A DNA stretch of 64,000 nt from an uncultured Candidatus Saccharibacteria bacterium (lineage in GTDB: Bacteria > Patescibacteriota > Minisyncoccia > Phycocordibacterales > UBA9973). The DNA is taken from positions 18,559 to 82,558 of the forward strand of contig CAYYSG010000001.1 in the NCBI GenBank assembly GCA_964474375.1, given 5' to 3'. The position numbers and the translations under genes are program-made. This document shows, one piece after another, positions 4,250 through 58,306 of the stretch. The notes beneath the pieces were generated by a model. That model had not been told where the DNA came from. It saw only the letters and a list, made by a program, of their open reading frames with translations, and did not search any database. Position 1 is the first letter of the stretch. The number at the start of each line of letters is the position of its first letter.

Positions 4250-4271
4250 CTGTGGGTAAGTTGTGTATAAC
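4250..4271. promoter_or_regulatory. Two DnaA-box-like sites upstream of dnaA
   Basis: tgtgggtaa (4251..4259) and tgtgtataa (4262..4270), each one mismatch from TGTGGATAA, in the divergent dnaA/rpmH spacer. Confidence 0.45.
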
Positions 4272-5831: not shown

Positions 5832-6317
5832 ATGGTCAAAACTAATGCTGAAGCACAAGAATTTGTTAAAAACCTGCTAAACACCATAGATGCTAGCTAC
5901 GATAGCATCGAAACAGTGTTTGATGAGGATAGCGGTCTTACTACTATTAGTGTTAAATCAAAAGATGGACGGCTGCTTATCGGTAAAGACGGAGAAACCC
6001 TAAATGCACTATCGACTTTACTCCATAGATATTTAGAATCTGGACTAAAGGAAAATGAATCCCCTATTTCTATATCACTCGACGTTAACGATTTTCAAAA
6101 AAAGCATATTGAAGATATAAAAACCAAAGCTCATATGATGGCTGAACGTGCTAAATTCTTCAAATCTAGTATCGAGCTTGATCCAATGAATGGGTACGAG
6201 CGCAGAATCATTCATACATTTCTTGAGAAAGATAAAAATATTTTAACTGACTCGACAGGAGAAGGTAAAAACAGAAGAATTGTTATAACTTACACAGAAG
6301 ACAAAACCGCTATATAA
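5832..6317 (+). CDS. khpB: KhpB/Jag RNA-binding protein (Jag_N, KH, R3H)
   Basis: C-terminal R3H motif GYERRIIHTFL, and its position after yidC. Confidence 0.8.
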   Translation: MVKTNAEAQEFVKNLLNTIDASYDSIETVFDEDSGLTTISVKSKDGRLLIGKDGETLNALSTLLHRYLESGLKENESPISISLDVNDFQKKHIEDIKTKAHMMAERAKFFKSSIELDPMNGYERRIIHTFLEKDKNILTDSTGEGKNRRIVITYTEDKTAI

Positions 6318-6325
6318 TAGCGGTT

Positions 6326-7414
6326 TTACTTTTTAGCGCACCCTGTCCATCCATATATGGAAAAATGTCTACCGGTAACCCAGCTGTATGTTCCGGCGCC
6401 TAGTCCTAGGTCTTTTGCTTTTTTGACCATTGCATCACCTGTTTGTCCTTCAAAGACAGTACACAGTTTAGATTTATTCGCTGATTGGTCTATATAAGTC
6501 AGGACATCGATATCGTTATACAAGTTACTATCAGTAAAAGCAAAGTCAACACATCTTCCAGTTTTGTGGCATGAGTTTTTGTGTTTTACGCTTTGAGGCA
6601 TTGCCTCGGTTATTCTATAGTTTCCTTTTATTTTAGAATTTTGGTCTAGTAGTTTTTTAAAAGCAGCCAGTCTTTCAGCTAGTTCTTTCGAAGCGTATTT
6701 GCCATTTTTTGTTTCCCATCCAGATATTGTTAAGTCGCTACAGTCCCCTGTAACTTTTTCATTAGGTTCTCCTTGGCAGGTATCCTTTACGCTTGTGGCT
6801 TTGTCGTAATTAAAGTCTTTTATGATATTTCCATCTTCACCATATGTAAAACTAACAACTGGCCAGGTTCTGGTATTTATTAAATTCCCCCCTATTCTTA
6901 TCTTCACTAAATCAGGATTAATAGTATAAAGTATCAAATAAGCACAAAACATGAGTATAAGTCCTGCTATTGCTGTAGTTATTTTACTTCTACTATCACT
7001 TTTCTTCCATACGGTATCTGACCCCATATACTGCACTCCATAAACCATGATCATGACTACAGTAATAGCACCTGCCATAGCTATAGCTAGCCTTATTATA
7101 AAGTTTACAAAGTCAGAGAAGCCGCCTGTCTCACCTTCTTCTTTTTCTTTGTCTGTTAGTTCTCTACAGCCACGGATACTACCATCAGCGTTGTATTCTG
7201 GTTTACCCGTATCACAAATCTTATCTATATTGCCTATTTTGTTTATTAGTTTGTATGAATCAGGTTTAAAATTTACATTATTTGTGTTTGTGGTGGCTTT
7301 GAGAGTTGTACTAGTATCAACATAGCTATTAGTTAGTACAGGAGTTTGAGCTACGGCTGCACTGCTTAGAATAAATCCCCAAAATAAAATAAAAATAAAT
7401 ACTTTATTCTTCAT
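6326..7414 (-). CDS. Fusion protein: signal peptide plus VirB2/TrbC-pilin-like two-helix membrane module, then a Cys-rich LAS/M15-type peptidase-like domain
   Basis: N-terminus carries a signal peptide and two hydrophobic helices (FVNFIIRLAIAMAGAITVVMIMVYGV; ITTAIAGLILMFCAYLILYTI). C-terminus has SCHKTGRCVDFA (SxHxxGxxxD, LAS metallopeptidase-like) and a later GRHFSIYGW His. Confidence 0.4.
   Translation of the reverse strand: MKNKVFIFILFWGFILSSAAVAQTPVLTNSYVDTSTTLKATTNTNNVNFKPDSYKLINKIGNIDKICDTGKPEYNADGSIRGCRELTDKEKEEGETGGFSDFVNFIIRLAIAMAGAITVVMIMVYGVQYMGSDTVWKKSDSRSKITTAIAGLILMFCAYLILYTINPDLVKIRIGGNLINTRTWPVVSFTYGEDGNIIKDFNYDKATSVKDTCQGEPNEKVTGDCSDLTISGWETKNGKYASKELAERLAAFKKLLDQNSKIKGNYRITEAMPQSVKHKNSCHKTGRCVDFAFTDSNLYNDIDVLTYIDQSANKSKLCTVFEGQTGDAMVKKAKDLGLGAGTYSWVTGRHFSIYGWTGCAKK
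6891..7123 (-). repeat. 233-bp direct repeat copy A (100 percent identical to 9403..9635)
   Basis: Read base by base: identical from cctattcttatcttcactaaatcagg to aagtcagagaagcc. Lies inside the pilin-like module coding region of 6326..7414. Confidence 0.85.
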
Positions 7415-8654
7415 AAGACCACAAGCTCATATTTTTTTTATTTATAAAGCTAATCAAATTACCGGAATTATTTATAGATGTTTTCCATACATCAATAGGA
7501 TTTTGGGCATCAGATGATATTTGGGACATTTCGCGAGCATTTAAATTCATAGTGGTATAACGAACGATTCCGTCATTTGTTTCTATTTCCCCGCTGTACC
7601 ATGCATCAGGATACAACACATTGTCGAAAGACTTTGGCACTGCACAAGTAAAAATAGTTTCATCAGAACTCCATGAACATTTTTCAACTAGACCCATTTT
7701 GCCTAACTGGCGCATTGTGCCATCTTTTAAATTATATGTAGACATAACCGGACCAGATTGCTCGGTCACTGCCCGCAGGATATAGTTTCCATCAGGTGAG
7801 ACTTTTGTGGTTAGGCCATTTAAATTCCCCCAGATTTTAGTTAGTTTTTTATTTTTTAGATCCAGGGTATAGGCAAACCCAGGTGCTAATTCTGTAGCTT
7901 TTGTTGTTAACAGTAGTTTTTCTTTGTTTATAAATTTAACGTGCCATTCACTAATAGGTGAAGAATAAACCAGCTCATCTTTAGCTGATTTTTCCATAAA
8001 TATACTAGAGCCATTTTGGTTTTTGCTAATGTATATAAATTCTCCGTCTTTAGCAAAGTCAAAAGAGATTATGTTGTCCGGCAATATTTTTACAGAATCC
8101 CTCCCTAGTGTTCCTAAGACTGATTTTTCTGTTATCATATCGGCATCTAAATATCTAAACAAAACCCTATTTCCATCTGGTGAAAAGTCAGCAAACAAAA
8201 CCCTAGGCAATGCCGTGTCGGATATTAAATAACTATTACTGTATTTAGGAATATAGTCATAAATATAACCATTTTCTCGGGATACATATCTAATAGCATC
8301 TATTTGGTCATATATTTTATTACCTTTTGCGTCGACGCCAGTTTCGCCGGCTATTTCGTCGTCTCTTCTTACTATAATAGAACCAGCTACGTTTTCAGCA
8401 ATGAGTTCTGGGTATCCAGTTGTATTTACTGCACTATCCCCCTCATCACCTCCACCAGGCAGTATGTCTCTTATAATGTCACCAATAGTACTGCCATCAT
8501 TATTACCAAAAGGTAAAAAATCTTTAGCTGTTATTTCAGTTATTTGGCCACTGTCTAGTTGTTTTTTTAGTGAGTTATTACGAATAACCATAAAACCAGC
8601 CATTCCTATTATTAGAATAACTAAAATTATTCGTATTAGTCTGCCTTTGTGCAT
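7404..8654 (-). CDS. Membrane-anchored beta-propeller protein (TolB/PD40-like repeats)
   Basis: N-terminal TM anchor (IRIILVILIIGMAGFMVI) and repeated SPDGNRVLF / SPDGNYIL PD40-like motifs. Confidence 0.5.
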   Translation of the reverse strand: MHKGRLIRIILVILIIGMAGFMVIRNNSLKKQLDSGQITEITAKDFLPFGNNDGSTIGDIIRDILPGGGDEGDSAVNTTGYPELIAENVAGSIIVRRDDEIAGETGVDAKGNKIYDQIDAIRYVSRENGYIYDYIPKYSNSYLISDTALPRVLFADFSPDGNRVLFRYLDADMITEKSVLGTLGRDSVKILPDNIISFDFAKDGEFIYISKNQNGSSIFMEKSAKDELVYSSPISEWHVKFINKEKLLLTTKATELAPGFAYTLDLKNKKLTKIWGNLNGLTTKVSPDGNYILRAVTEQSGPVMSTYNLKDGTMRQLGKMGLVEKCSWSSDETIFTCAVPKSFDNVLYPDAWYSGEIETNDGIVRYTTMNLNAREMSQISSDAQNPIDVWKTSINNSGNLISFINKKNMSLWSYEE

Positions 8655-8696
8655 AAAATTATTATAACATAGAGATGTCGTAATAATTAGTGTTAA

Positions 8697-9824
8697 TTAT
8701 TTGTCTTGCAAGACACAGGCATCGTATAGATTCTTACGGTTTCTTGATTCGGTTTTTGCAAAGTCACTAGCTGGTTTACAGCTACCTCCGCCATATGCTC
8801 GAAATGTATTTTCTATATCACCCTTACATTTTTCAAAATTATATTGCAGTAGCTCTGCTCCAGCTTTTATGGCTTTGGTTGCATCGTACATATCTTTTGG
8901 ACAGACCGTGGTTTTTGTTTTTGCTGTTAGTCTGCATCTAGGTTTGCCATCTTCTGGAAAAAATGTAAATTGCATAATCCCTACCCCATGAGAAAATCTC
9001 CAGTCTAGTCCTAAATCATCACGACTTGGATTACTGGCGGTGAATATACCGCCCGTTCCATGGTCATCATTTAAAAAACTAGAGTTAGTTCCTAATAGGT
9101 TATTGTTTGGGTTAAATGTAACGCCTTTGTATGTTTTACCTGATGCAATGAATTGCCTTCTGGCTGGTACGCTTTTAGGAATAGGTGCATTTTCATCGTG
9201 CCCTATTACGCTAGGGTTACCTCGGGATTCACGGAGAGCCACCACCTGCAACATGCAGTGATGTATACCATAAGATGGAGCAATGGATTTAATTTGGTTA
9301 TAATAAGCAGTCCTAGCGAATGTCGTTGTTACCTCTCTTTCTAGTCTGTATTGGCTGGCTGGGTTCCATTCGGACCATGTATTTTCTTCTATTTTGTTTC
9401 CTCCTATTCTTATCTTCACTAAATCAGGATTAATAGTATAAAGTATCAAATAAGCACAAAACATGAGTATAAGTCCTGCTATTGCTGTAGTTATTTTACT
9501 TCTACTATCACTTTTCTTCCATACGGTATCTGACCCCATATACTGCACTCCATAAACCATGATCATGACTACAGTAATAGCACCTGCCATAGCTATAGCT
9601 AGCCTTATTATAAAGTTTACAAAGTCAGAGAAGCCATTAGGGCTGACATCTTGCACTTCTTTTATATTACCTATTTCGTTTATTAGTTTGTATGACCCAG
9701 GCTTAAAATTTGCATTGTTTGTGTTTGTGGTGGCTTTGGGTAGGTTATCCGATTTTACTATTGTTGGGTAAACAAATCCTGTGGCAAAAATCAGAACCAG
9801 TATAAAAAGTGTTTTCTTTAACAT
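8697..9824 (-). CDS. Fusion protein: VirB2/TrbC-pilin-like two-helix module plus lytic-transglycosylase-like (VirB1-like) domain
   Basis: N-terminal ~130 aa are nearly identical to those of 6326..7414. C-terminal domain has LRESRGNP ... GVGIMQFT ... RAYGGG, resembling the SLT motifs ES / GLMQ / AYNxG but with a long insertion. Confidence 0.45.
   Translation of the reverse strand: MLKKTLFILVLIFATGFVYPTIVKSDNLPKATTNTNNANFKPGSYKLINEIGNIKEVQDVSPNGFSDFVNFIIRLAIAMAGAITVVMIMVYGVQYMGSDTVWKKSDSRSKITTAIAGLILMFCAYLILYTINPDLVKIRIGGNKIEENTWSEWNPASQYRLEREVTTTFARTAYYNQIKSIAPSYGIHHCMLQVVALRESRGNPSVIGHDENAPIPKSVPARRQFIASGKTYKGVTFNPNNNLLGTNSSFLNDDHGTGGIFTASNPSRDDLGLDWRFSHGVGIMQFTFFPEDGKPRCRLTAKTKTTVCPKDMYDATKAIKAGAELLQYNFEKCKGDIENTFRAYGGGSCKPASDFAKTESRNRKNLYDACVLQDK
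9403..9635 (-). repeat. 233-bp direct repeat copy B
   Basis: Identical to 6891..7123. Lies inside 8697..9824. The flanks are only ~85 percent similar. Confidence 0.85.
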
Positions 9825-9827
9825 AAG

Positions 9828-10775
9828 TTAAAAATTAAGCTCCAATGCAGATTTGAATTCTTGGTATAGTGATCGAGGATTATCGTAATTTAGATTCAGG
9901 CGAACAACTCCACTGTCATCGGGCCGAATAAACGAAATCAGTTCTGGAATTTTTTGGTTATTTACATCTTCCCCACTAAGGTTCCAGACAATATTTGGAT
10001 TCAGTGTTTTATTTATACCCAAAGGAACACCAAAAACTGAAATAGTATTGTCATACCCAGCAACTTCATTTTTTATAGTGGTCCCTAGATTAAGTCCAAC
10101 CAAAGGACTGTATTCGTAGAATAATATTTTGTTTCTAGTAAAAGGTATACTAATAGAAGAAGTTTTGGTTTCAGAATTGGGTTTTATTACAGATACTGTT
10201 ATGTTTTCGGATCTTTCTATTTCTGTGTTTTTAAAATCAACAAAATTATTAGCACTGCTAGATTTCGTTTGGAGTGATTTGCCATTTCTTGCCCAAGAAT
10301 ATGAAACTTGTCCCCCACTAGGGTTCAGGACAGCTACGCGCAAATCATTTTCTCTTATTGGTATACGCTTACCCATGTAAAAAGGAATACTTTTACTATT
10401 CATTGCTTCCCAGATTAAGTCATAAGACATAGATGAAAAAGTTATATTTTTAGTAACCTTAGACCCACCAACTAGTGTTATTTCAGCATCAATGTTATTT
10501 TGTGCTCCTGGAGTATTACTTGATTCTATTGTAAATTCTTTTTCACCATAGCCAGATTTAGTCACACTGCCGTATGACCATTTAATATAAGCTAAATCTA
10601 AGTTTGTTTCGTAGCTTGTTAGTGTTGCTGTTACCTCCTCGCCTTCTCTTGGATCTACTGGATTAATACTGATGGATATATTAGGTTCAGATTCAAAAGT
10701 ACCCTGCGCCAGAGCACTGCCAGTTATAATAAATATAAATAATGCTATACCTAACAGGTATTTTTTCATATACAT
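9828..10775 (-). CDS. Secreted hypothetical protein within the T4SS-like cluster
   Basis: Signal peptide MYMKKYLLGIALFIFIITGSALAQ. No recognisable motifs. Confidence 0.5.
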   Translation of the reverse strand: MYMKKYLLGIALFIFIITGSALAQGTFESEPNISISINPVDPREGEEVTATLTSYETNLDLAYIKWSYGSVTKSGYGEKEFTIESSNTPGAQNNIDAEITLVGGSKVTKNITFSSMSYDLIWEAMNSKSIPFYMGKRIPIRENDLRVAVLNPSGGQVSYSWARNGKSLQTKSSSANNFVDFKNTEIERSENITVSVIKPNSETKTSSISIPFTRNKILFYEYSPLVGLNLGTTIKNEVAGYDNTISVFGVPLGINKTLNPNIVWNLSGEDVNNQKIPELISFIRPDDSGVVRLNLNYDNPRSLYQEFKSALELNF

Positions 10776-10786
10776 ATTATAGCATA

Positions 10787-12649
10787 CTAGTTTTGCTGTG
10801 CTTTATTTTTTTCAGCTTGAATAGCCAGAACTTGAGCTGGGTCAGATGTGATTATTTGTTCCTCTGTATAAGACGAAACTATTTTGATGGCTACGTGTTT
10901 TAGTCCTGCGAAAAATATCCCTTCCCCTACGTTGGCTTCTAGTAGTGTGTATTTTTCCGCATCGGTTAGATTAAATGCATCTTTTAGGACATCAATAGTC
11001 GTTGGGGACTGTTTTAGAAGCAGTTGCATTGAAGAGTTAGTTAAAATAGGTCTACCATATGGTGATTTTAGGAAGTCCTCCACGTCTTGTGTAATTGTAG
11101 CTAATCCAAGGTAATATTTACGTCCACGTTTTGCAATACTGTATAGGAAACTAGCTGTGTCTTCGTTTTTCATCATCCACCAAGCTTCATCCACTACCAT
11201 TAGTCTCTTTTTTAGATTCTTACGGATTTCATTCCATATGAAATGAGTAATTATATACATTGCTACAGGTTTTAATTCATCTTCCATATCACGTATTGAA
11301 AACACAACGAACTTCCGGTTTATGTCGACGTTACTTGGTTTGTTTAAGAATCCTGACCATGAGCCGGTTGTGAACTTTTCTAGCTTTGTAAGTACTGAAG
11401 AAGTTCCGTCCATACCAGCTAACACAACTGCAAAGTCGGACAATAGTGGTGGTTCAATAGTACTAAAGTCTGAATCAACGGTAATGTCCTTTAGGGCATA
11501 AGTCTCGGTGATTGCACGGTCGATAATAGCGTCTTCTTCGGGAGTTAGCCCACCCAGCATTACGCGAAATAGCCCCACTAGATTGATTGTATTTTGGCGG
11601 AGTACGTCTGCATTTGTTTCGTCTTTACTTGGGATCGGTAAATCAAAAGGATTTATATGGTGGTCAGATGATAGTGATACATTAAAATATCGCCCCCCTA
11701 CTGCGTCGGACAGGTATTCGTATTCTTTTTCCGGGTCGATAACTATAACATCAGTATCGAACATGAGTGAACGCAGAATTTCTAGTTTGGTTGCGAAAGA
11801 TTTACCAGAACCTGATTTTGCAAATGTTACAGAGTTATAGTTTTCCAATGAAAATCGGTCAAAAATAATAAGTGAATTATTATGCTGATTGATTCCATAT
11901 AAAATTCCTTTGTTGCCTGTTAGGTCAAACGAAACAAAAGGAAAAGTACTGGACAATGGTTCTGTGTTCATTTTTTGCATTACACGCAAATTGTCTTTTG
12001 CCATCGGGATGCTGGACAGGAATGCCGTGTCTTGCTGAAAAGTCGCTGGTTTGATGAATATCATTTGTGAATCCAGCTGACCTTTTATTTCGTTCTCGGC
12101 CTTGAATAGATCGGATTCATTTTCGGCATATATGTTGATATATAGTCCTACTTCGAACATTTTTTCTTGTGCTTGCTGCAAAGAATCGCGCAGTTGCTCT
12201 AAATCTCTATATGCTGATTCTAACATTGGGTCACGAACCATACCCTTGCTCTCTCTTTCGGATATTTGACTTTGGACTTCAGCTACCTTTTTCTGGAATT
12301 GGGACATTATTTTACCAGTATCTACTGGGGTTATGTTTATGGAAATATCGAAAACCCTGTCCAAGTTTATTATAGGTGTTAGCCAGTTGTCAGTTAGTAT
12401 ACTAGGATATCCTACAATATAGAATGAACGTACTATCATGTCCCCTAGATTAAGAGCAGTAGGCATTATCTGCAGTGCTGATGGGGCTATAATGTCTTGT
12501 AGTTCGAGCTGAGCTGAACTAAAGATTTCTTCTGGTCTAACAGACAAAGAACCAAGAACACTAGATGATTCTTTTTTGTTTCCGCCACCAAATATTTTTG
12601 AAAATATAGACATATTATTGGTTACTTTGCTTAGGGATATGACCAGCAC
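10787..12649 (-). CDS. virB4: VirB4/TrbE/TraC-family conjugation-type ATPase, C-terminal ATPase portion
   Basis: Walker A FAKSGSGKSFATK. ..HHINPFDL, Walker B LMVVDEAWWMM, and RGRKYYLGLATITQ. Overlaps the upstream partner ORF by 35 nt. Confidence 0.7.
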   Translation of the reverse strand: MLVISLSKVTNNMSIFSKIFGGGNKKESSSVLGSLSVRPEEIFSSAQLELQDIIAPSALQIMPTALNLGDMIVRSFYIVGYPSILTDNWLTPIINLDRVFDISINITPVDTGKIMSQFQKKVAEVQSQISERESKGMVRDPMLESAYRDLEQLRDSLQQAQEKMFEVGLYINIYAENESDLFKAENEIKGQLDSQMIFIKPATFQQDTAFLSSIPMAKDNLRVMQKMNTEPLSSTFPFVSFDLTGNKGILYGINQHNNSLIIFDRFSLENYNSVTFAKSGSGKSFATKLEILRSLMFDTDVIVIDPEKEYEYLSDAVGGRYFNVSLSSDHHINPFDLPIPSKDETNADVLRQNTINLVGLFRVMLGGLTPEEDAIIDRAITETYALKDITVDSDFSTIEPPLLSDFAVVLAGMDGTSSVLTKLEKFTTGSWSGFLNKPSNVDINRKFVVFSIRDMEDELKPVAMYIITHFIWNEIRKNLKKRLMVVDEAWWMMKNEDTASFLYSIAKRGRKYYLGLATITQDVEDFLKSPYGRPILTNSSMQLLLKQSPTTIDVLKDAFNLTDAEKYTLLEANVGEGIFFAGLKHVAIKIVSSYTEEQIITSDPAQVLAIQAEKNKAQQN

Positions 12650-13262
12650 TGTCCCCTGGGTTAAATGTTTTGTAATAAAGCTCGATCAAGCCTTCGGTGT
12701 TTAAGGGTACTGACCGTACTCCACAGCGGCCCAGAGTTTGCATTACGATACCTAGTCTTTGTTCTAGCTGGTTTCTTTTTTCATTCCAGTCTACTTCTTC
12801 TTCGGATTCTATTTTTTTTAAGCCCCCAACAGACCCAAAAAATTTTGAGAAAAATCCCCCAGTACGTATTAATGACTGACTATATGGTACAACTATATAA
12901 AAATGTTTTGACATTATGTTTACCCTGCTAGTTAGTTCACGAATAAATTCGATATATTCTCTGGTTTGGAATTTGAGCAAAGGCTCGTCTATTTTGTCGA
13001 GTCTTTCTTCTAGTGTTAGTAGGTATGGTCTAATATCGAATTTTCTGGACTGGACGACTATTTGAGTATCAAAATCGAGCGAATTTAATAGTGATTGGAA
13101 TTGTAATATTATAGACTTTTGTTCGTCTTGTGAGCGCAAAGTAAAGTTAATAGCGGTACACAGTAGTACAGCTCTTAGTCCACCATCATTAAGTTCCACC
13201 ACCCCGTCACGGATGTGTTTTATCGGTACAAATGACTGACTGCTTGGTGCTTTGATTGACAT
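12615..13262 (-). CDS. VirB4-family N-terminal domain, encoded separately in a different frame
   Basis: PIKHIRDGVVELNDGGLRAVLLCTAINFTLRSQDEQKSII resembles the VirB4 N-terminal region. Together the two ORFs total 835 aa, close to a typical VirB4 (~800 aa). Confidence 0.5.
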   Translation of the reverse strand: MSIKAPSSQSFVPIKHIRDGVVELNDGGLRAVLLCTAINFTLRSQDEQKSIILQFQSLLNSLDFDTQIVVQSRKFDIRPYLLTLEERLDKIDEPLLKFQTREYIEFIRELTSRVNIMSKHFYIVVPYSQSLIRTGGFFSKFFGSVGGLKKIESEEEVDWNEKRNQLEQRLGIVMQTLGRCGVRSVPLNTEGLIELYYKTFNPGDSAGHIPKQSNQ

Positions 13263-13263
13263 A

Positions 13264-13692
13264 TTATTTTACTGATTGACCGCTAGATTGGTCTCGGTCC
13301 ATTACGTCTAGACTCCATGCCAATGCTTCTATCTTACCACGGTCTAGGTTTTTCGGTGTAGTTAGGACAGGCTTTTTTGTGGCTATTCCTTTGTTATCCA
13401 TGTCTTTTTTGTGTTCAGGTCTTTGCCAGACATACATACGGTTTTTTGTGTAGTGTGTTAAAAATGCTTGGAACATTAGAATAGCTGGACGAGAATTCGG
13501 CTTCCAGAATGAAAGACTAATAGCTAAGAATAAAAATAAAGCTATAAGTATAAAACCAAAAGTAAAACCCAGATATGTATATGTTACATAAGCCAGGCCA
13601 ACTCCCCCACCTAGATAAATAAATTGCTTAAAAGTCAAAGGCCCAATGACTTTGTCTTCTATGTCTAAAAATCTTGGCATTTGGAATTGCAT
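13264..13692 (-). CDS. VirB3/PrgI-like small membrane protein
   Basis: 142 aa. IEDKVIGPLTFKQFIYLGGGVGLAYVTY then a TM helix, matching the VirB3/PrgI-type pattern (..GLT.rQ...), and located immediately upstream of virB4. Confidence 0.45.
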   Translation of the reverse strand: MQFQMPRFLDIEDKVIGPLTFKQFIYLGGGVGLAYVTYTYLGFTFGFILIALFLFLAISLSFWKPNSRPAILMFQAFLTHYTKNRMYVWQRPEHKKDMDNKGIATKKPVLTTPKNLDRGKIEALAWSLDVMDRDQSSGQSVK

Positions 13693-13733
13693 ACTAATAT
13701 AAGTATATCATAAGAAAATCCCAGAATATATTA

Positions 13734-14405
13734 TTATTCTGGGATTTCGCGGTATAGATCATTTTTCCTGTCACCTGTGGTTACTTTGGGTAAACTAGTT
13801 TCTATTTTGGTGCGGTCTAGTACTTGGTTTTCGTTCTTACTTTTTAGTATATCTTCCCAGGAATCTGATTTTAGGGCAGGTATGGAATTGCTATTCATCT
13901 CTGCTACTTTTTCATGGCTTAACATGCCACTAGGTCTAATGTCGCTGGTTACTCTTGAAACTGGTGCTGGGGCTACCCCTTCAGGTCTTGGAACATCTTG
14001 CATTTCGATGTAGTCGGATAGCTCTTTCTCAATCATGTCGTCGTTTTTCCAGTTGTTCTCTAGTACTGCGACTCTTTCTTTGGTTAGAATATTGGCAAAG
14101 ATATAGTCATGTATACCACCACGGACAGAACTGTTTACATTTGGCAATGCCTGGGTTATTTCATCTTTAACTTCACTTGGTCTAATGAAACCCAGTAATG
14201 TCATTGTAGTTATGTATTCTATCTCACTAACATATTCAGGTGCTAAACTGTAATTTTTAACCATATTTAGAAAGTCATTTGCATAACTTTGACCTAGAAC
14301 ATAGTTCCGTAATTCCGGCTGAATATTTTTAAGCCTATCCATTATTTGAGAAACTTCTTCTTGGGATTCATTAGGTATTAAGTTGATTTTATTATTTTCA
14401 TCCAT
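13734..14405 (-). CDS. Hypothetical protein, T4SS-like cluster
   Basis: 223-aa ORF with no recognisable motifs, gene-dense context, same strand as the cluster. Confidence 0.4.
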   Translation of the reverse strand: MDENNKINLIPNESQEEVSQIMDRLKNIQPELRNYVLGQSYANDFLNMVKNYSLAPEYVSEIEYITTMTLLGFIRPSEVKDEITQALPNVNSSVRGGIHDYIFANILTKERVAVLENNWKNDDMIEKELSDYIEMQDVPRPEGVAPAPVSRVTSDIRPSGMLSHEKVAEMNSNSIPALKSDSWEDILKSKNENQVLDRTKIETSLPKVTTGDRKNDLYREIPE

Positions 14406-14408
14406 AAA

Positions 14409-17400
14409 TTATGCTTTAGGTGGTTGGTATTTGTCAGTTGTGTCGACCTTTGTGTCTTTGTCTTGCCAGCTTCTACCATAGTTTTCATAGAATTTTCTGT
14501 CATACTCTGCCATTCTTACTAGCCCTGTAGCTATTGCTGTTGGTGCTGCTACCCAGCCGAATGGAGCACCTAGTACTGATCCTTTTGCTACGTCGGTATG
14601 TAAGAATGAATCATTGAGTACTGCACCTAATTTGCTTCTTGTTCCTGACGGGCTACTTTTTAGTTGATATGTCATGTTTTCTATATCACGAGCTGCTTCG
14701 GCTACATCTTTCAGAGCCTTGTCTTTTGCTTCACCTTCCATGGAATCTATATCGATTGAATTATAGACTGCCTCGTAAATTCTATTTTTAGCATGTTTAT
14801 TGAGAATCTCGGTGTCTTTTTTATACTTTTTAATGATCTCTTTCTTTTTGTCTTCGTCGGCTCCTGCCCATTCTTTGTCAGTTTTTGCTTTGTTTTCAAC
14901 TTCATTCATTATTTCCATAATGTCAGACCTTTTTGCCATTTTCTCGTCGGTCTCTGCTTCTTCTAGGTCTTTTCCAATTTTTTCTTTATATACGTCAAGA
15001 CCAGTTTTACGTTGGAATATTTTACCAGATTTTTCTCTTTGGAATTGCTTATATCTATCTGCTCTGTCAGTTTTAACTTTTTCCATTGCTTCTTCTGCAC
15101 CTTTTATTCCGATTACATGCATAGCTTTACCTGTTTTTTCATCTACGTATGTATAGCCATCACCTTTTAAGGCATTTAGCTTGTCTTTCTCTATTTTAAT
15201 TTCTTTTCTAATTTCTTTTTCTGCGTTTCCTAGTTTTGTGGCTTCTTTGTTTGCGTCTGTTTGGCCGTCTTCGTGTTTCCTTATTTCTTCTTTTAAGGCG
15301 TTCTTATCTTCTTCCAGTTTAGCTTTTTGACCTTCAAGTAAGACTTTTTTAGCAGTATCTGTCTCAGCGTCTATTTCTTTTTGTTTTTCTTTAATAAGAT
15401 TTTCTTGTTCGTTGACTTTTCTTGTTTTTGTTGATATTTCAGCTGCGTGGTCTCTGGCTACTTGTTGGTAAGAACGCATTTCAGAGAATTTTTCATCAGC
15501 ACGTTCTTTTAGGTCATTAACTATGTCTTCTTGGTTATTTGCTGCACGTTCTGTTTTTTTCTTAACATCTTCCATTTTGTTGTACATTTCTTGGTCGAAC
15601 CCTAGAGAGTCTTCAAACTTTTTAATTCTCTCTGTTTTTCTTTGCATCTGTGCCATGTATCCCCCAGCAGTTGTAGCTGTTTGGAATTGTTTACCAAAGA
15701 AAGGTATATAGTTTGTACCAGCTTGCATATTAACCCCTGTGAATCCTGATACTGCGCTGGCAGCTTTGTTTTGACGTAAATCAAAGCTACCTTTACGTGT
15801 CATATCGAGTGCTCCTACTTTTAGTCTTGCCCATGTGTTGCCTTCGGCTGCTTTTGTCATTAGTTTTTCTCCTGCGGTACTTTGCATATAACGACTAGCT
15901 CTTTTACCTAGTGCATTTCTACCAGCCCAGGCTGCGCCACCTGTAGCTATTGCTGCACCAAATCCAGCTACGCCAGACGCTACTGCTACTAATTTATCCC
16001 CTGCTAGTTTAGCAATGCTCGAAGTCAGGCCTTCTGTCATAGATTTTATTAAATATAAGAATCCAATTATCAGCATAAAAGGTATGATCAAACTCATCCA
16101 CCATTCTATACCCACAACTCCGTCGCCAAATACCGCTTTAAAAGGATTGTTCTTTACAAATAGTACTAGTATCATCATTAAAACTAGGAATATTGGAGCC
16201 TTGAATGCATCTTTTAATAGTCCTTGCATCCATTCTTCAAAACCAACCATTTTTAGACCACTTCTTTGTCCTGATGATAACGACAATGAAAACACTGCTA
16301 AGGGTGAAAGTATAATTGCAAATATAAGCCCTATAATACGGTATATGAACTGCAAAGCTATTTTTAGGAATATCAGCATTGCTATGACGTTAAATATCAC
16401 ACCCATTAGGAGTATCATGAAGACCGTTCCTTTGTTTTCGTCTACTTTGAATGTAGCAGCGTTGTCATCAAGTCCATCTAAGATGATTTTTTGGGGGTCG
16501 TAACCTTCGGCGGCAGTAGATGAAAGACTAATAGCTTTACCATCTGCCCCGTCGGTACGACTAAACACGTTGTAGTATAGTTGGCGCGCAGTAATGTTCG
16601 ATATATCTATAACTATTGTTGTTAGCGGGAATGAAAAGTTAATAACCGTAGCCACTATCAGAGTGTTAACTATTAGTTGCTTAGTACCCTGCCCTATGTT
16701 TAAAACTAGTTTGAATGCTAAATATAGCAACATAAATATAAAGAACAAGTTACATACATCACGAATGAATCTCCAGCCGTCTTTTATATACTGTGCATTG
16801 TATGAATCTGGCTGGATACTATAAGCCAAAACAAAGTCCATGATGCTACCCGCTACACCCAGTAAGAATGCTGTTGGTACAAAAACCATATAGTAAAACC
16901 CAACAACAAGACATCCAGTAAACCAAGTGCCAATGTCTTTCGCATCACATTTAGGCATCCAAGCCGGACCACTACCAGCACTATTGCCTGAGCTTATAAG
17001 GACTGCCCCACCTCTGGATGTTTGTGTTATTTGATCTGGTATTGATACCGAAACAACAGGAGTATATCCATTGTCGTCAAACCAAGGGTCGTGTTCGTTA
17101 GCAAAAAGTCTAAAATAATAAGTTTTGTTTTTTTCAACTTGTAGTGGTTCTAGTCCAAAAACCATACCAGTTTTTGCATCGCTTATGATAGGTGAATCTA
17201 CTTTTTCACCGAATATATACGGGTTTAAGTTTATCTCTTTTACGTCATTACCTCCTACTTTTGGATCAGTGTTACTAGTTGAATATAAAAGATAAAATCC
17301 ATATCCACCCTCATTTGCTGTTCGGGTATCTATTTCTGGGTTATTAAAGCCTTTTGTAAAATTATCCCAGTCACCTCCTGGAATGTCTCCAGGAGATGCT

Positions 17401-18662
17401 TTGCGATTATTATCTACATCATTCCATGCAATAAAATCTGTACTATCTGGCTTGTCTATAAGCATAGCAATATCAATGTCTAAAACAGGCTGACTACCCG
17501 ACATTGCTGGTTCGAGTTTTTTAATTGAATAGTCTTCCATTACGTAATTTGCATTTGCAAATTTGTATTGAATATTTTGTTTAGTGCTTGTGTTTAACAA
17601 GGTCCATGTTACTTGAGTTCCAGAATTTGCATTTGGGTCAAAAGCCATTTGAGCTTTTGCGCTAGACCATTCTGTTGATAGCTGGTAGGATCCATCTGTT
17701 TTAGGTTCTGGGTCTGTTGTTTGTATCAATTCAGATCTAGACAATGTATACAGAGTTCGGTCGCTATTATCTTGAAAGTAATTTACTTTAAAACTCCCCT
17801 TTTTTTGTTTAGGTATGTCTGCACTCAAATGAAGGATGTTTTTATTTGTCTTACCTTCTACTTTTAATGTTCCAACCATATTCTGGGTTACATCAAAACT
17901 AGAATAGTCTTTTTCTCTAAATTGGCCCCATTCAACATCAAAACTATTACCAGTTCCTTTTTGTGCTTTTATAAAAACAACATGATCTTTTATGTTTTTA
18001 TAAATAGTTGTACCGATAACTGTATCAGCTAATTCTTCAACCGCATTTTTATCAGAAGTCTTTTCTGTCCGGATAGTCTTTACTCCTTGCCTGTCTTCTG
18101 TTGTATATGTAAATTTATAATGCCCCCACTCATCAAAACCACCATTATCCTCAATACATTTTTTAAAAAAAGTAGAAGGTATTGAAAATGTAAAATCTTG
18201 TTTTAAATACCCCCTTGCTTCGGTGTTCGCTAGATTTAGGCTGGCAATAGATGTTTTGTCGGGGCTTGTAAGACTAGGGTTAGATACGAGCGTTACATTA
18301 CTAGCAGAACAACCTGTTTCTATATCTCCTGGAACAAATCCATCTCTTATTTCGTATTCAATTTTATCAATAGAATTTATTCTATGGTTAGGGTCAGTAA
18401 AAGCTGAAACTTTTATATTAGTTCCATCAGTAATACCTGTGACAATAAGAAAAGCGTCTGCATTTTTAGCATCAACATATTCTCTTTTTTCTACTTTTGG
18501 TGTTTGTGCTGATACTGTATTAGCCCTGACACTGATTTTGTTGTCAGAAAAGTTTATTATGAAAGGTGAAAAAAGCTGGAAGATAACCAGAAAAATAGCT
18601 ATAAATCCAAAAGCTTTTTGCTTCATACTGTATGTATAAATTGTAACATATTTTTTAAACAT
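14409..18662 (-). CDS. Giant polytopic membrane protein, VirB6/TrbL-like core with ~560-aa N-terminal extracytoplasmic region and Gly-rich/coiled-coil Lys-Glu-rich C-terminal tail
   Basis: 1417 aa. N-terminal signal/TM, then a multi-TM block (~570-870, e.g. LFFIFMLLYLAFKLVLNIG, FMILLMGVIFNVIAMLIFL, WWMSLIIPFMLIIGFLYLI). Followed by a Gly-rich segment (GVAGFGAAIATGGAAWAG) and a long K/E-rich coiled-coil. Confidence 0.4.
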   Translation of the reverse strand: MFKKYVTIYTYSMKQKAFGFIAIFLVIFQLFSPFIINFSDNKISVRANTVSAQTPKVEKREYVDAKNADAFLIVTGITDGTNIKVSAFTDPNHRINSIDKIEYEIRDGFVPGDIETGCSASNVTLVSNPSLTSPDKTSIASLNLANTEARGYLKQDFTFSIPSTFFKKCIEDNGGFDEWGHYKFTYTTEDRQGVKTIRTEKTSDKNAVEELADTVIGTTIYKNIKDHVVFIKAQKGTGNSFDVEWGQFREKDYSSFDVTQNMVGTLKVEGKTNKNILHLSADIPKQKKGSFKVNYFQDNSDRTLYTLSRSELIQTTDPEPKTDGSYQLSTEWSSAKAQMAFDPNANSGTQVTWTLLNTSTKQNIQYKFANANYVMEDYSIKKLEPAMSGSQPVLDIDIAMLIDKPDSTDFIAWNDVDNNRKASPGDIPGGDWDNFTKGFNNPEIDTRTANEGGYGFYLLYSTSNTDPKVGGNDVKEINLNPYIFGEKVDSPIISDAKTGMVFGLEPLQVEKNKTYYFRLFANEHDPWFDDNGYTPVVSVSIPDQITQTSRGGAVLISSGNSAGSGPAWMPKCDAKDIGTWFTGCLVVGFYYMVFVPTAFLLGVAGSIMDFVLAYSIQPDSYNAQYIKDGWRFIRDVCNLFFIFMLLYLAFKLVLNIGQGTKQLIVNTLIVATVINFSFPLTTIVIDISNITARQLYYNVFSRTDGADGKAISLSSTAAEGYDPQKIILDGLDDNAATFKVDENKGTVFMILLMGVIFNVIAMLIFLKIALQFIYRIIGLIFAIILSPLAVFSLSLSSGQRSGLKMVGFEEWMQGLLKDAFKAPIFLVLMMILVLFVKNNPFKAVFGDGVVGIEWWMSLIIPFMLIIGFLYLIKSMTEGLTSSIAKLAGDKLVAVASGVAGFGAAIATGGAAWAGRNALGKRASRYMQSTAGEKLMTKAAEGNTWARLKVGALDMTRKGSFDLRQNKAASAVSGFTGVNMQAGTNYIPFFGKQFQTATTAGGYMAQMQRKTERIKKFEDSLGFDQEMYNKMEDVKKKTERAANNQEDIVNDLKERADEKFSEMRSYQQVARDHAAEISTKTRKVNEQENLIKEKQKEIDAETDTAKKVLLEGQKAKLEEDKNALKEEIRKHEDGQTDANKEATKLGNAEKEIRKEIKIEKDKLNALKGDGYTYVDEKTGKAMHVIGIKGAEEAMEKVKTDRADRYKQFQREKSGKIFQRKTGLDVYKEKIGKDLEEAETDEKMAKRSDIMEIMNEVENKAKTDKEWAGADEDKKKEIIKKYKKDTEILNKHAKNRIYEAVYNSIDIDSMEGEAKDKALKDVAEAARDIENMTYQLKSSPSGTRSKLGAVLNDSFLHTDVAKGSVLGAPFGWVAAPTAIATGLVRMAEYDRKFYENYGRSWQDKDTKVDTTDKYQPPKA

Positions 18663-18690: not shown

Positions 18691-19545
18691 TTATTTACAA
18701 ATAGTTTCTTTGGCTTTGTGTATTATACATTCTATCGTGCCGTTTTGTATCGTGGTTATGGTTTTTATGTTGTACTTGTTTAGCACATTTAGTACTTCGA
18801 TGTGTGGGTGACCATAGCGGTTATTCTCCCCTGCGGAAATCAGTGCGTATTTGGGCGTGGTTAGCATGATTAGTCTTTCGCCGGTCGATGTGTTGGATCC
18901 ATGGTGTCCAACTTTTAATATGTCTATGTTGTTTAAGTATTTGCCATACTTTTTCAAGACCTCATCTTCTACTTCTTTTGGGGCGTCACCTGTTAGCAGT
19001 ATCTTTTTGCCTTCGTATTCTATCAGTCCTACCATTGAACCCGAATTCCTTTCCCAGTCAGCTACATTGCCTTCGGGCCAAAGAACTGTATAAGTCACGC
19101 CATGATTTTTGTCCAGAACCACTACATCCCCGCTTTTAGGCTTATAAATGTTGATTTTTTGCTCTTGGGCTAGTTTTTCTATTTCAGTATAGGCGCTGAT
19201 GGTGTGATTGGTGCCGGGGCTTAGTATTTGCCCTATTTTGTATTTTTCCATTACAAAAGGAAATCCTCCTATATGGTCCAAATCTGGGTTGGAAACCTCG
19301 ATGATGTCTATTGTCTCACCGGTATTTATATATTTGCCTAGCTCACTTAGCACGCTCCTGTCGCGGCCTGAATCTATCAGCATTTTCCTGCCGCCGGGGG
19401 TTTCTATTAGTGTTGCGTCGCCCTGGCCTATGTTTAGCATATATAGGCTCAAGCTATTTTCTTCAGGTTTTTGCCTAGTTAGTAGAAAAATAAGTATAAA
19501 AAAGACTAAAATTGTAATTATCCAGTAAATATTCCGTCTTTTCAT
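18691..19545 (-). CDS. ComEC C-terminal metallo-beta-lactamase-fold domain protein, encoded as a separate gene with its own TM anchor
   Basis: LNIGQGDATLIE, DHIGG, and KVGHHGSNTSTG are motifs of the ComEC/Rec2 MBL domain. The ORF is open to 19605, and the start is more likely Met at 19545 (MKRRNIYWIITILVFF). Confidence 0.7.
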   Translation of the reverse strand: MKRRNIYWIITILVFFILIFLLTRQKPEENSLSLYMLNIGQGDATLIETPGGRKMLIDSGRDRSVLSELGKYINTGETIDIIEVSNPDLDHIGGFPFVMEKYKIGQILSPGTNHTISAYTEIEKLAQEQKINIYKPKSGDVVVLDKNHGVTYTVLWPEGNVADWERNSGSMVGLIEYEGKKILLTGDAPKEVEDEVLKKYGKYLNNIDILKVGHHGSNTSTGERLIMLTTPKYALISAGENNRYGHPHIEVLNVLNKYNIKTITTIQNGTIECIIHKAKETICK

Positions 19546-19578
19546 GTATAAATTATAACATTTTGCTATAATACTCCT

Positions 19579-20184
19579 ATGATAGAAAAATACACTGCAA
19601 AACAATATGATTTGCCAGAACTAACTGGTATTTCCAAAAAAAGTATAGAAGAACATATGAAACTATACGAAGGCTATGTTAAACACGCCAACCTAATAAA
19701 AGAAAAGCTAGAATCAATCCCCGCGGACGATGCCTATACTCGCACCGAACTCATGCGACGGTTTTCTTTCGAGTTCTGTGGTATGCGTAATCACGAGCTT
19801 TATTTTTGGTCTCTTGTTGGTGGGGCTAGTACTATTCCAAATGGTTCAAAGTTAGAATCAGACATCATTCGTGATTTTGGTAGCATAGATGATTTTTTTA
19901 TAAAATTAAAAGAAATAGCTTTGACTCGGTCCGTTGGTTGGGCAATGTTGTCCTACGATGTAACATTCGACCACTTGACTTTGTCTTGGGTGGATGAACA
20001 GCATATAGGGCAACTCATGAACGTGTTCCCTGTTTATGCTATCGATATGTGGGAACATGCTTATGTTTACGACTATCAGCCTAGTGGTAAAAAGAATTAT
20101 CTTGAAGACTATATCAAAAATACAAATTTCGAATCTTTATCTAACCGCTACGAAGTTTTTTGCAGTAGCTTAAAACCTTTGTAA
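19579..20184 (+). CDS. sodA: Fe/Mn superoxide dismutase family protein
   Basis: NHELYFWS and AIDMWEHAYVYDY match the SOD metal-ligand motifs NHxxFW and DxWEHAYY. The N-terminal HH..HH motif is partly degenerate. Confidence 0.7.
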   Translation: MIEKYTAKQYDLPELTGISKKSIEEHMKLYEGYVKHANLIKEKLESIPADDAYTRTELMRRFSFEFCGMRNHELYFWSLVGGASTIPNGSKLESDIIRDFGSIDDFFIKLKEIALTRSVGWAMLSYDVTFDHLTLSWVDEQHIGQLMNVFPVYAIDMWEHAYVYDYQPSGKKNYLEDYIKNTNFESLSNRYEVFCSSLKPL

Positions 20185-21455
20185 AATAAAAATACATAAA
20201 TAGTCAGTACAATAACCAAAGGAAAATTTTCCACATAGTAGGCAGACCAAGTTGTCTCGCCTATTTTGTTTATTATATATATCATCAGGTTTGAAATATT
20301 TTCCGTAACAAAAGCCGGAATGAATCTGAGGAATTCAGGTGTGATACCTAGCACAAATCCAAACAGCATTAACACTGGTATCATTGGAACTATTATAATG
20401 TTAGCTATAATTCCAAGTGACGAAATTATGCCTATAGAATAAGCAATATATGGCAAAGTCATAATGCTAGCTGAAATAGTGCTACTCAATGTTTCGGACA
20501 AAAATTTGCCAAATCTTTTTTTAACAAAATATCCAGCGACTGTGCCCTGGTATGCTATTAGTCCAAAAGTTGCCAGTACTGAAAGATGAAAACCCACATC
20601 ATAGCGTAAAGACAAAGGTGAAATCAGTATCAGCAAGGAGGTTGCTAAAAATAAAGCATACAGGTTATTGTATTCTAGCCCTCTGGCTCGTGCATAAATC
20701 AAGACGAGCGACATTATGCTGGCTCTGACTGCGCTACTGGCTCCGCCAGCTAATACCAAAAAAGCCAATATACCAAGCGACCCAAACAAACTACGAACCA
20801 GTATACTAAACGAAGACAGTATCTTCATAATAGTTTCACTAACTATGGTCATGTTGTATCCAGAAAGCGCAATTATATGGCTAGTGCTCGATCGTGACAA
20901 ATTCAGCCTAAATTCATTTGTCATGTCAGACTTCTCCCCTAATAATATCCCGCGTGTTAACGAAGCGCTATTATAACTAAGTGACGCATTTATTTTATTT
21001 GCAAAACCAGTGCGTATTTTAAAAAGAAAACTTTTTATTTTGTTGGCTTGGTTTATACCCAGTACTTCTATTGTGGGTTCGCGGACTATGCCATATATTT
21101 TAGATAGTTTTAAATAATTATCATAATCAAATGTTTTACCTGAGTCGGTAATAAAGTCTTTTGGTTTTTCTATTGTGCTAGTTATTTTTAGCTCATCGCC
21201 ATAATGGTATTCAGTATAAGGTTCAGTTACTATTAGTAACCTGCTGTTATCATTCACATTTATTTCGTTTATGGATTTTATTTTTATTCTGTATCTATTT
21301 GAACTAATTCTTTTTTCTGGGTAATCATCCACTACTCCTATTATTGTAAATTCTTCGTCACCAAAATTAATTTCAATTTCTTCTTTTACAAAACAAAAAT
21401 ACATTCCGTATATTATAGGTATTATGACTATAATAATTCGGAATGTATTTTTCAT
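20148..21455 (-). CDS. comEC: ComEC/Rec2 competence channel (membrane domain only)
   Basis: Polytopic protein whose region LAFLVLAGGASSAVRASIMSLVLIYARARG is typical of the ComEC competence domain, with a DUF4131-like N-terminal part. Confidence 0.7.
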   Translation of the reverse strand: MKNTFRIIIVIIPIIYGMYFCFVKEEIEINFGDEEFTIIGVVDDYPEKRISSNRYRIKIKSINEINVNDNSRLLIVTEPYTEYHYGDELKITSTIEKPKDFITDSGKTFDYDNYLKLSKIYGIVREPTIEVLGINQANKIKSFLFKIRTGFANKINASLSYNSASLTRGILLGEKSDMTNEFRLNLSRSSTSHIIALSGYNMTIVSETIMKILSSFSILVRSLFGSLGILAFLVLAGGASSAVRASIMSLVLIYARARGLEYNNLYALFLATSLLILISPLSLRYDVGFHLSVLATFGLIAYQGTVAGYFVKKRFGKFLSETLSSTISASIMTLPYIAYSIGIISSLGIIANIIIVPMIPVLMLFGFVLGITPEFLRFIPAFVTENISNLMIYIINKIGETTWSAYYVENFPLVIVLTIYVFLFYKGFKLLQKTS

Positions 21456-29323: not shown

Positions 29324-29324
29324 T

Positions 29325-29930: not shown

Positions 29931-29937
29931 CTAGTAT

Positions 29938-31740: not shown

Positions 31741-31743
31741 GGT

Positions 31744-58265: not shown

Positions 58266-58306
58266 AAATAAAAAATCCCCCTACGACATAGGGGGATTTT
58301 TTTTTA
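58266..58306. terminator. Bidirectional terminator
   Basis: aatccccct-acgacat-agggggatt hairpin flanked by an A run and T run. Confidence 0.7.

Follow-up and report, generated by a model that had tools for sequence, protein, structure and literature searches.

Known type IV secretion systems of Patescibacteria

The DNA analysed here is a stretch of 64,000 nucleotides (64 kb, referred to as the window) from an uncultured Candidatus Saccharibacteria bacterium, and it carries beside dnaA a nine-gene locus (positions 6326-18662) encoding a type IV secretion system (T4SS). We consider it very likely that this locus is the Paceibacteria version of a chromosomal, MPF-FATA-derived and non-conjugative T4SS of Patescibacteria, which would mediate the host-contact-dependent transfer of macromolecules needed for growth of the epibiont. 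Patescibacteria, which account for much of the diversity of bacteria, spend their lives attached to host cells, and their T4SS is among the few machines shown to be essential for this attached lifestyle.

A T4SS essential for epibiotic growth was identified by transposon sequencing (Tn-seq) at SEML1_0006-0019 in Candidatus Southlakia epibionticum (Wang et al. 2023, Cell; PMC10633639). This system has no recognisable coupling or relaxase proteins and its pilins were found to be essential (PMC10633639). The supplementary tables of the same study list Ig-like exported proteins, lysozyme/CHAP and M15-fold hydrolases, VirB4, PrgI and VirB6-like proteins, in the same order and on the same side of dnaA as in our window, and an unannotated 293-aa protein occupies the position of TrsD (PMC10633639).

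A survey of 3,035 genomes placed the VirB4 proteins of Patescibacteria in a monophyletic clade nested in MPF-FATA (Quiñonero-Coronel et al. 2025, Microb Genom 11:001409; PMC12102498). According to this survey, TrsD, PrgI, VirB6 and VirB2-like PF18895 proteins are encoded near virB4 while VirB8 is almost never detectable, and the locus lies near dnaA, dnaN and rnpA, above all in Paceibacteria. The survey reports relaxases in 103 genomes only, and homologues of the VirD4-like type IV coupling protein (T4CP) in most genomes but far from virB4 (PMC12102498). A 2025 FEMS review describes these T4SSs as essential for epibiotic growth and possibly pilus-forming (PMC12857230), and a 2026 preprint describes uptake of host RNA by a Microgenomatia strain in culture, together with tubular connections "that may be T4SS pili". 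The locus in our window is an example of this non-conjugative system published between 2023 and 2025 and nothing in it is categorically new; it is a clean, compact Paceibacteria example. The first-pass annotation of this DNA had proposed a non-conjugative T4SS-like apparatus of the type found in small-genome episymbionts, and both the synteny described below and the published phylum-wide descriptions (PMC10633639 and PMC12102498) bear this out.

Organization and conservation of the locus

The components of the locus, from the first gene of the operon to its terminator, are as follows.

14409-18662, minus strand: predicted extended VirB6/TrbL-like channel protein, 1417 amino acids (aa), assigned through a transitive profile link and the predicted fold
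13734-14405, minus strand: T4SS-associated hydrophilic helical protein without a known family, 223 aa, recognised by iterative hidden Markov model (HMM) searches and positional conservation
13264-13692, minus strand: PrgI/VirB3-like small membrane protein, 142 aa (Pfam PrgI, E-value 1e-7; 32.8 bits, gathering score 27)
12615-13262, minus strand: TrsD-like protein, the detached N-terminal domain of VirB4, 215 aa (NCBIfam profile matches)
10787-12613, minus strand: VirB4 ATPase, C-terminal three quarters, 608 aa from its ATG (conju_CD1110)
9828-10775, minus strand: membrane-anchored extracellular protein with three predicted tandem immunoglobulin (Ig)/fibronectin type III (FnIII)-like beta-sandwich domains, 315 aa (AlphaFold2 model, Foldseek)
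8697-9824, minus strand: VirB2-like pilin module with a C-terminal SLT lytic transglycosylase domain, 375 aa (SLT, 6.9e-8; 32.5 bits, gathering score 21.3)
7404-8654, minus strand: membrane-anchored extracellular protein, probable PD40/TolB-type beta-propeller, 416 aa (PD40, 0.0056, below threshold)
6326-7414, minus strand: second VirB2-like pilin module joined to a VanY/M15 (LAS)-like domain of divergent sequence, 362 aa (aligned with a VanY-positive homologue)
6301-6329, both strands: hairpin with a 13-bp stem, a probable bidirectional terminator closing the operon (terminator scan; located where jag and the final gene of the T4SS converge at their 3' ends)

The nine co-directional open reading frames (ORFs) of the minus strand, which run from 18662 to 6326, have exactly the boundaries given in the first-pass annotation. 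The nine genes form a single operon, 2.1 kb from dnaA, because the intervals between them range only from -11 to 42 nt, the terminator scan found no strong minus-strand terminator inside the cluster and the hairpin stands at its 3' end.

A scan with the VirB4 protein over one genome per species returned 515 relatives, and the best 80 loci (L001-L080) were examined for synteny. These 80 all belong to metagenome-assembled genomes of Patescibacteria that carry the names Paceibacteria, Paceibacterota, Nomurabacteria, Minisyncoccia and, in some cases, the generic "Saccharibacteria"; by these matches the organism is a Paceibacteria/Nomurabacteria-type Patescibacterium. Their VirB4 proteins are 71-94% identical to ours while no plasmid VirB4 exceeds 35%, a comparison that is a similarity ranking and not a phylogeny.

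The gene order was observed to be nearly invariant in the 80 loci: VirB6-like protein, 223-aa family, PrgI, TrsD-like protein, VirB4, Ig-like protein, pilin-hydrolase and propeller, followed by jag-yidC-rnpA on the other strand and then by dnaA-dnaN. Every one of the nine families was met again, in an unchanged order, in related loci, and chance ORFs can thus be dismissed. Only genus-level relatives also have the comEC/recJ flank and a second pilin-hydrolase gene.

Conservation differs strongly between the components. Across the more distant related loci, VirB4 has a median identity of 73% and is more conserved than DnaA (54%), YidC (45%) and DnaN (27%), and the TrsD-like protein reaches 52%. 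The surface components were found to be far more variable, with medians of 31% for the propeller, 28% for the Ig-like protein and 29% for the VirB6-like protein, of which about 30% of the length is alignable. The motor is therefore strongly constrained and the surface parts evolve fast, as expected of a host-interaction device. A constrained motor, fast-evolving surface parts and a fixed housekeeping neighbourhood together argue for a vertically inherited host-interaction machine and against a mobile element.

These data bear on the view that the locus is an ordinary integrative conjugative element, or what is left of such an element, with its relaxase, T4CP and integrase located beyond the window. 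VirB4, PrgI and the position of a hydrolase after VirB4 do resemble MPF-FATA elements such as pCF10 and CTn2, relaxases are present in a few Patescibacteria and the window contains a tyrosine recombinase gene (58304-59257). This lone recombinase, however, is XerC/D-like and stands among housekeeping genes at a distance of 40 kb, and the locus itself is located between jag and comEC in a housekeeping context that is syntenic over dozens of genomes. Its presence is not patchy, as it was found in synteny in all of the related loci. The GC content is uniform, at about 0.36-0.38, throughout the cluster and its flanks, and a VirB4 that is conserved above DnaA does not fit a decaying element. In the survey, 109 relaxases were counted in 3,035 genomes and 15 of them were near virB4 (PMC12102498).

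All non-nested ORFs of 100 aa or more were scanned across the window. No relaxase family was matched by any of them and no VirD4/TcpA-type coupling ATPase was found, the unassigned ORFs being without a Walker A motif, in agreement with the first reading that neither a VirD4 protein nor a relaxase is visible in the 64 kb. That reading had also placed the cluster beside dnaA and outside any mobile element, and had named integrase-bounded att sites, together with a VirD4, relaxase or oriT in the same element, as the mark of an ordinary integrative conjugative element; synteny and composition agree with the placement, and no integrase, repeat or tRNA gene was found at the cluster borders. The tRNA genes of the window are located at 50-53 kb. 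On synteny, composition and the missing border features, we reject the integrative conjugative element, which we regard as highly improbable.

PrgI and the TrsD-like and VirB4 motor components

The ATPase was recognised with confidence. It matches conju_CD1110 of NCBIfam with an E-value of 1.2e-113 and 380.9 bits (cut-off 325), over profile positions 181-732 of 752, and in Pfam it matches P-loop_TraG (1e-27) and CagE_TrbE_VirB (2e-4). Its translation contains the Walker A motif GSGKS, the Walker B motif VVDEAW and the sequence DHHINPFDL, so the VirB4 call of the first-pass annotation, made from the Walker motifs and HHINPFDL, is sustained. A longer ORF form of 620 aa starts at a GTG at 12649.

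The quarter that is missing from the N-terminus of this protein is encoded just upstream. The 215-aa ORF, whose stop codon is located 1 nt ahead of the ATPase ATG, matches the NCBIfam profiles VirB4_plasma at positions 103-236 (2.6e-10), CD1110 at positions 4-121 (1.3e-5) and TrsD (0.052), and its precomputed family is PF26593 (TraC-like). The motor thus consists of two polypeptides, a TrsD-like N-terminal domain and a CD1110-family ATPase. The two were observed as separate ORFs in 79 of the 80 loci and also on an independent contig with an identical VirB4; the split is for this reason not an assembly error. The 215-aa protein is the counterpart of TrsD, which the survey reports as the commonest T4SS partner of VirB4 in Patescibacteria (PMC12102498). 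The first-pass annotation had overlooked both this detached domain and the VirB2-like module that is carried by both hydrolases.

The PrgI/VirB3-like protein has a hydrophobic segment at about residues 41-59 and was found in 76 of the 80 loci. The closest plasmid homologues of VirB4 all come from Bacillota or Actinomycetota, with 28-35% identity and an annotation as CD1110 family, and these matches to monoderm bacteria are consistent with an MPF-FATA origin.

The VirB6-like protein and the 223-aa protein

The largest protein of the locus has a signal or anchor segment at residues 18-36, a hydrophilic ectodomain of about 530 aa and a polytopic transmembrane core at about residues 575-910. The core is followed by a Gly/Ala-rich linker and then by a K/E-rich coiled-coil at about residues 1000-1300. 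Orthologues range from 740 to 1390 aa and have only the core in common.

Neither TrbL/VirB6 (PF04610) nor any other Pfam T4SS family was matched by the 1417-aa protein or by 45 of its orthologues. The NCBIfam scan of the protein gave no TrbL/VirB6 match, and sequence and profile searches of the PDB returned noise alone (lysozyme, fn3 and low-complexity coiled coils). The HMM searches that the first-pass annotation had pointed to thus gave a divided answer, with PrgI above its gathering score and CD1110 above its cut-off but no direct TrbL/VirB6 match in this protein.

As the direct searches failed, the VirB6 assignment was built on a transitive profile link and a comparison of folds. A single transmembrane-core sequence retrieved five relatives whereas a profile of the conserved-core alignment retrieved 212. 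Three of the 212 (P0103, P0104 and P0109) pass the Pfam threshold for TrbL/VirB6, with 26.4-32.3 bits against a gathering score of 25.9, and hhalign aligned the core with one of these TrbL-passing relatives at an E-value of 1.7e-43, over a region spanning the TrbL-matching stretch. The AlphaFold2 model of the core (pLDDT 84.9) is polytopic and helical with a VirB6 fold, and its five best Foldseek matches in the PDB are all TrwI/VirB6 of plasmid R388. On this modelled fold and profile link we accept the protein as a predicted "extended VirB6", and the first reading of a VirB6/TrbL-like polytopic protein is upheld by the same evidence.

No transmembrane segment was predicted in the 223-aa protein, and searches of Pfam and the PDB gave nothing meaningful for it. 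Iterative HMM searches located its family at the same position in 54 of 57 loci; BLAST had given 12 of 80. Most of the homologues are about 350 aa long and contain a helical domain of about 100 aa twice, whereas the window copy has it once. This unannotated family, which sits between the VirB6-like and PrgI genes, has a conserved DPYRE motif at its C-terminus.

Pilin-hydrolase fusions and the duplicated module

The 375-aa and 362-aa proteins share one layout, in which a signal peptide and a two-helix hairpin are followed by an enzyme domain of 200-230 aa. Among 70 positional homologues of this module, 47 match T4SS_pilin (best E-value 1.8e-10) and nine match TrbC/VirB2, and it is from these matches of their family that we would assign the two window modules as VirB2-like. 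The loop between the two helices is rich in Lys and Arg and therefore, by the positive-inside rule, the hydrolase domains should lie outside the membrane.

Two peptidoglycan hydrolase-like genes had been noted in the first-pass annotation. The SLT domain of the 375-aa protein is above its threshold. For the C-terminal domain of the 362-aa protein, neither Pfam nor the PDB gave a direct match; it aligns with the VanY domain of L011:10996-11871, where the VanY match is 1.7e-13, and the alignment includes NSCHKTGRCVD opposite NSNHESGKAFD, in which the zinc-site motif SxHxxGxxxD is found. This pairwise alignment and the single motif suggest a VanY-like domain, and the second hydrolase is recognised only in this way.

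The enzyme attached to the module was observed to be variable. VanY is the C-terminal family in 17 of the 70 pilin-module proteins, SLT in 11, NlpC/P60 in six, YkuD in three, Peptidase_M15_4 and Amidase_2 in two each, and SLT_2 and Peptidase_M15 in one each. Each of the 69 module-bearing ORFs, which come from 61 loci, continues for at least 159 residues beyond its module, and no small stand-alone pilin consisting of a signal peptide and a hairpin only was found among them. The domain fusions, which the first-pass annotation took to be unusual, are therefore the norm in this lineage. No further pilin module was found elsewhere in the window. As judged from these ORFs, the VirB2-like modules of this lineage appear always to be joined to a swappable cell-wall hydrolase, which is a modest new detail and a lineage-level variant of a known system. 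Such pilin-hydrolase fusions are unmentioned in the accessible literature, the coverage of which is limited. A hydrolase on every VirB2-like module is testable and could tie the T4SS to the breaching of the host wall and to host specificity.

The hairpin modules of the two window proteins are 100% identical over about 85 aa and are encoded by a direct repeat of 246 nt, the two copies of which bracket the SLT domain and the propeller gene.

6878-7123, no strand assigned: 246-nt direct repeat, copy 1, encoding the shared pilin module (repeat search; 98% identical to 9390-9635)
9390-9635, no strand assigned: 246-nt direct repeat, copy 2 (repeat search)

A second direct repeat of 76 nt (7226-7301 and 9663-9738) is 91% identical. 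The highest published identity between pilins of one array is 54% (PMC12102498). The near-identical modules point to a duplication or gene conversion of recent date, and the SLT domain and the propeller gene could be lost if the two copies recombined.

A more far-reaching view of these proteins is that the VirB2-like module is not a plain pilin but the carrier of interchangeable wall enzymes (SLT, VanY/M15, NlpC/P60, YkuD, amidase), which would make a wall-drilling filament if it is polymerised or docked on the VirB6 stalk. We put this forward as a speculative idea that is probably not correct as it stands. If it were true, the enzyme heads would be fitted to the peptidoglycan chemistry of the host and help to set the host range, and they would open a route for cytoplasmic material to pass from host to epibiont, as the 2026 preprint proposes for another Patescibacterium. 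The duplicated module, with its 98% DNA identity, would then be the trace of recent head-swapping by recombination.

The Ig-like protein and the propeller

The AlphaFold2 model of the 315-aa protein (pLDDT 82.9) has a single N-terminal helix followed by strands alone, and Foldseek returned only generic tandem Ig/FnIII proteins. Its family of 311 relatives, none of which has a Pfam domain, is present in 73 of the 80 loci immediately after virB4. The protein had been proposed for structure prediction as a possible VirB8-like NTF2 fold. This candidate was ruled out as the modelled fold is all-beta, with three Ig/FnIII-like domains, and not alpha+beta as in NTF2-like proteins.

The 416-aa protein, whose gene lies between the two pilin-hydrolase genes, has an N-terminal transmembrane segment and was found in 60 of the 80 loci. 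Apart from the PD40 match given above, its family profile matches TolB only, with an E-value of 0.1. From these matches it is probably a PD40/TolB-type propeller, and the beta-propeller of the first-pass annotation is retained at that reduced strength.

The abundance of extracellular parts (Ig-like domains, the probable propeller and hydrolase-bearing pilin modules) would also suit a surface organelle only, that is, an adhesive or wall-digesting pilus or stalk for which VirB4 is purely an assembly ATPase and through which nothing is translocated. VirB4 is known to power pilus biogenesis, as also stated in the survey (PMC12102498), and the window offers no coupling protein to recruit substrates. 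However, the large conserved VirB6-like channel with its cytoplasmic extensions is kept, and the genes at 27-35 kb encode a type IV pilus system, distinct from the T4SS, for adhesion. Protein secretion without a T4CP is, moreover, known from the Ptl and Brucella VirB systems (PMC12102498). We therefore consider a purely structural organelle to be very unlikely.

Chromosomal neighbourhood

The operon is flanked on the left by the following genes.

1579-2667, minus strand: dnaN
2841-4196, minus strand: dnaA
4329-4463, plus strand: rpmH

On the plus strand, rpmH is followed by rnpA, yidD, yidC and jag/khpB, the last of which ends at 6317. Near-consensus DnaA boxes are grouped in two short intergenic regions beside dnaA, at 2708, 2715 and 2825 (perfect) and at 4251 and 4262. 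As these clusters, at 2708-2833 and 4251-4270, flank dnaA, a replication origin at dnaA is plausible. If the origin does flank dnaA, the rightward fork would meet the T4SS operon head-on, together with most of the genes up to about 43 kb. The minimum of the cumulative GC skew is at about 43 kb, which is where the gene orientation flips, and the skew may merely follow the coding strand.

The genes to the right of the cluster, upstream of the operon, are a split comEC, a gene for superoxide dismutase, rnhA and recJ. ComEC is encoded by two genes, one for the Competence domain (20148-21455, minus strand) and one for the metallo-beta-lactamase domain (18691-19605, minus strand). The Fe/Mn superoxide dismutase gene (19579-20184) is located between the two halves on the opposite strand, and the same layout was observed in the closest relatives (L002-L008).

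The position of the split comEC genes, rnhA and recJ directly upstream of the operon raises the possibility of a DNA-uptake machine of the Ced or ComB type, which would import environmental or host DNA for the ComEC channel and RecJ. Such a machine would agree with the finding of neither a relaxase nor a T4CP in the window, and in NCBIfam VirB4 weakly matches CedB, an archaeal ATPase for DNA import (4.5e-9, far under the cut-off). In the class ABY1, T4SS loci co-localise with comF, recG and radA, according to the survey (PMC12102498). However, the match of VirB4 to CedB is far poorer than that to the conjugative CD1110 family, and the comEC/recJ adjacency is limited to the seven or eight closest loci and is lost in about 70 others. 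Deletion of comEC in S. epibionticum ends competence yet leaves the cells viable; the T4SS of this organism, in contrast, is essential (PMC12857230). Because the adjacency is confined to the closest relatives and comEC is dispensable where the T4SS is essential, the DNA-uptake machine is weakened and we regard it as unlikely.

The remaining part of the window consists of housekeeping genes and the type IV pilus cluster. The latter is a complete-looking gene set (27312-34705, minus strand) at a distance of 9 kb from the T4SS operon; it includes the PilB ATPase, the PilC platform protein and pilins with the N-methylation motif, among them a 600-aa pilin with CarboxypepD_reg domains. Three secreted, unannotated proteins are encoded near these genes, all on the plus strand (34764-35675, 35999-36718 and 38349-39437). 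They share an N-terminal hydrophobic anchor followed by a motif like [FY][SV]EP[TA][GS], and no Pfam family was matched by them. A weak TraL_transposon match at 35689-35997 was discarded as it is unsupported by NCBIfam, and its ORF lies among these pilus-associated secreted proteins. A 474-aa secreted protein (36816-38240, minus strand) contains a Por_Secre_tail domain, the C-terminal sorting signal of type IX secretion (2.9e-10, above the Pfam threshold). This match is unexpected for a presumably monoderm Patescibacterium.

Proposed function of the T4SS

The locus is homologous to the T4SS of S. epibionticum that was identified by Tn-seq, and no relaxase or coupling protein was found in the window; from these two observations we infer its function as a non-conjugative transfer system. 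The VirB6-like channel, PrgI/VirB3 and the two-part VirB4 would form a translocon in the cytoplasmic membrane. The Ig-like protein, resembling a stalk or adhesin, the probable propeller and the pilin-hydrolases would form the extracellular part that contacts the cell wall. There, the VirB2-like hairpins would place the SLT and VanY/M15-like hydrolases outside the membrane and, as their topology suggests, these heads may locally open the epibiont's own wall or that of the host around the apparatus. The machine would then move macromolecules between epibiont and host, and not DNA by conjugation, in support of host-dependent growth. Its assembly, the opening of the wall and the link to epibiosis are proposed here by homology to the S. 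epibionticum system.

Several points weigh against this proposal. T4SS_pilin is below threshold in both window proteins, with E-values of 0.027 in the 375-aa and 0.011 in the 362-aa protein, and weak matches underlie the propeller and VanY-like domains. No VirB8-like component was detected, given the fold of the 315-aa protein and a 223-aa protein that lacks a transmembrane segment or a database match, which leaves the system incomplete by the standards of Gram-positive T4SSs. The function is also transferred from a Saccharibacterium of a different class, and the sequence is silent on the cargo and on the direction of transfer. Even so, the non-conjugative Patescibacteria T4SS with a role in epibiosis is the reading we favour, at the strength stated at the outset.

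Comparison with known systems

The predicted channel protein differs from TrwI/VirB6 of R388 and from the "extended VirB6" proteins of Rickettsiales, with 10-15% identity and no direct Pfam match. Its N-terminal ectodomain of about 530 aa and its C-terminal coiled-coil of about 300 aa are specific to this lineage.

With the MPF-FATA conjugative T4SSs, such as pCF10 Prg/Pcf and CTn2 of C. difficile, the locus shares a VirB4 that passes the CD1110 cut-off and the lack of outer-membrane core components. The genes of pCF10 are arranged in the order prgH-prgI-prgJ-prgK, which is matched here by VirB6, VirB3, VirB4 and the hydrolase. In contrast to these systems, the locus has no relaxase, T4CP, adhesin or VirB8-like PrgL; it is chromosomal and vertically inherited, and its VirB4 is split and has 28-35% identity to plasmid VirB4 proteins. 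Pilin modules are present here whereas the Gram-positive systems are without pilins.

With the T4SS of the Patescibacteria clade, the locus shares the MPF-FATA-type VirB4, the adjacent TrsD-like protein, PrgI/VirB3, VirB6 and PF18895-like modules, as well as the location near dnaA/dnaN/rnpA, the lack of a relaxase and an undetected VirB8. The survey counted homologues of VirB2 and VirB1 apart and their fusion is undescribed in its accessible text, whereas here the fusion is obligatory in the 61 module-bearing loci.

The likeness to the ML1 system (SEML1_0004-0019 of Ca. Southlakia epibionticum, Saccharimonadia), from which alone essentiality is known, extends to the details of the locus. Both are chromosomal, lie directly beside dnaA/dnaN and contain neither a relaxase nor a T4CP in the locus. 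Toward dnaA, both run from VirB6-like protein through an accessory protein, PrgI and a TrsD-like protein to a VirB4 of about 610 aa, after which come cell-wall hydrolases, an M15/LAS fold among them, and Ig-like exported proteins; PF18895 pilin modules occur in both. ML1 has two VirB6-like genes and an NTF2-like protein, whereas our locus has one VirB6-like gene and no NTF2-like protein, with a probable propeller in addition. The pilins of ML1 are six small stand-alone proteins (103-185 aa) in a separate, divergent array and its hydrolases are large and separate, whereas in the locus described here the pilin modules and the hydrolases are fused.

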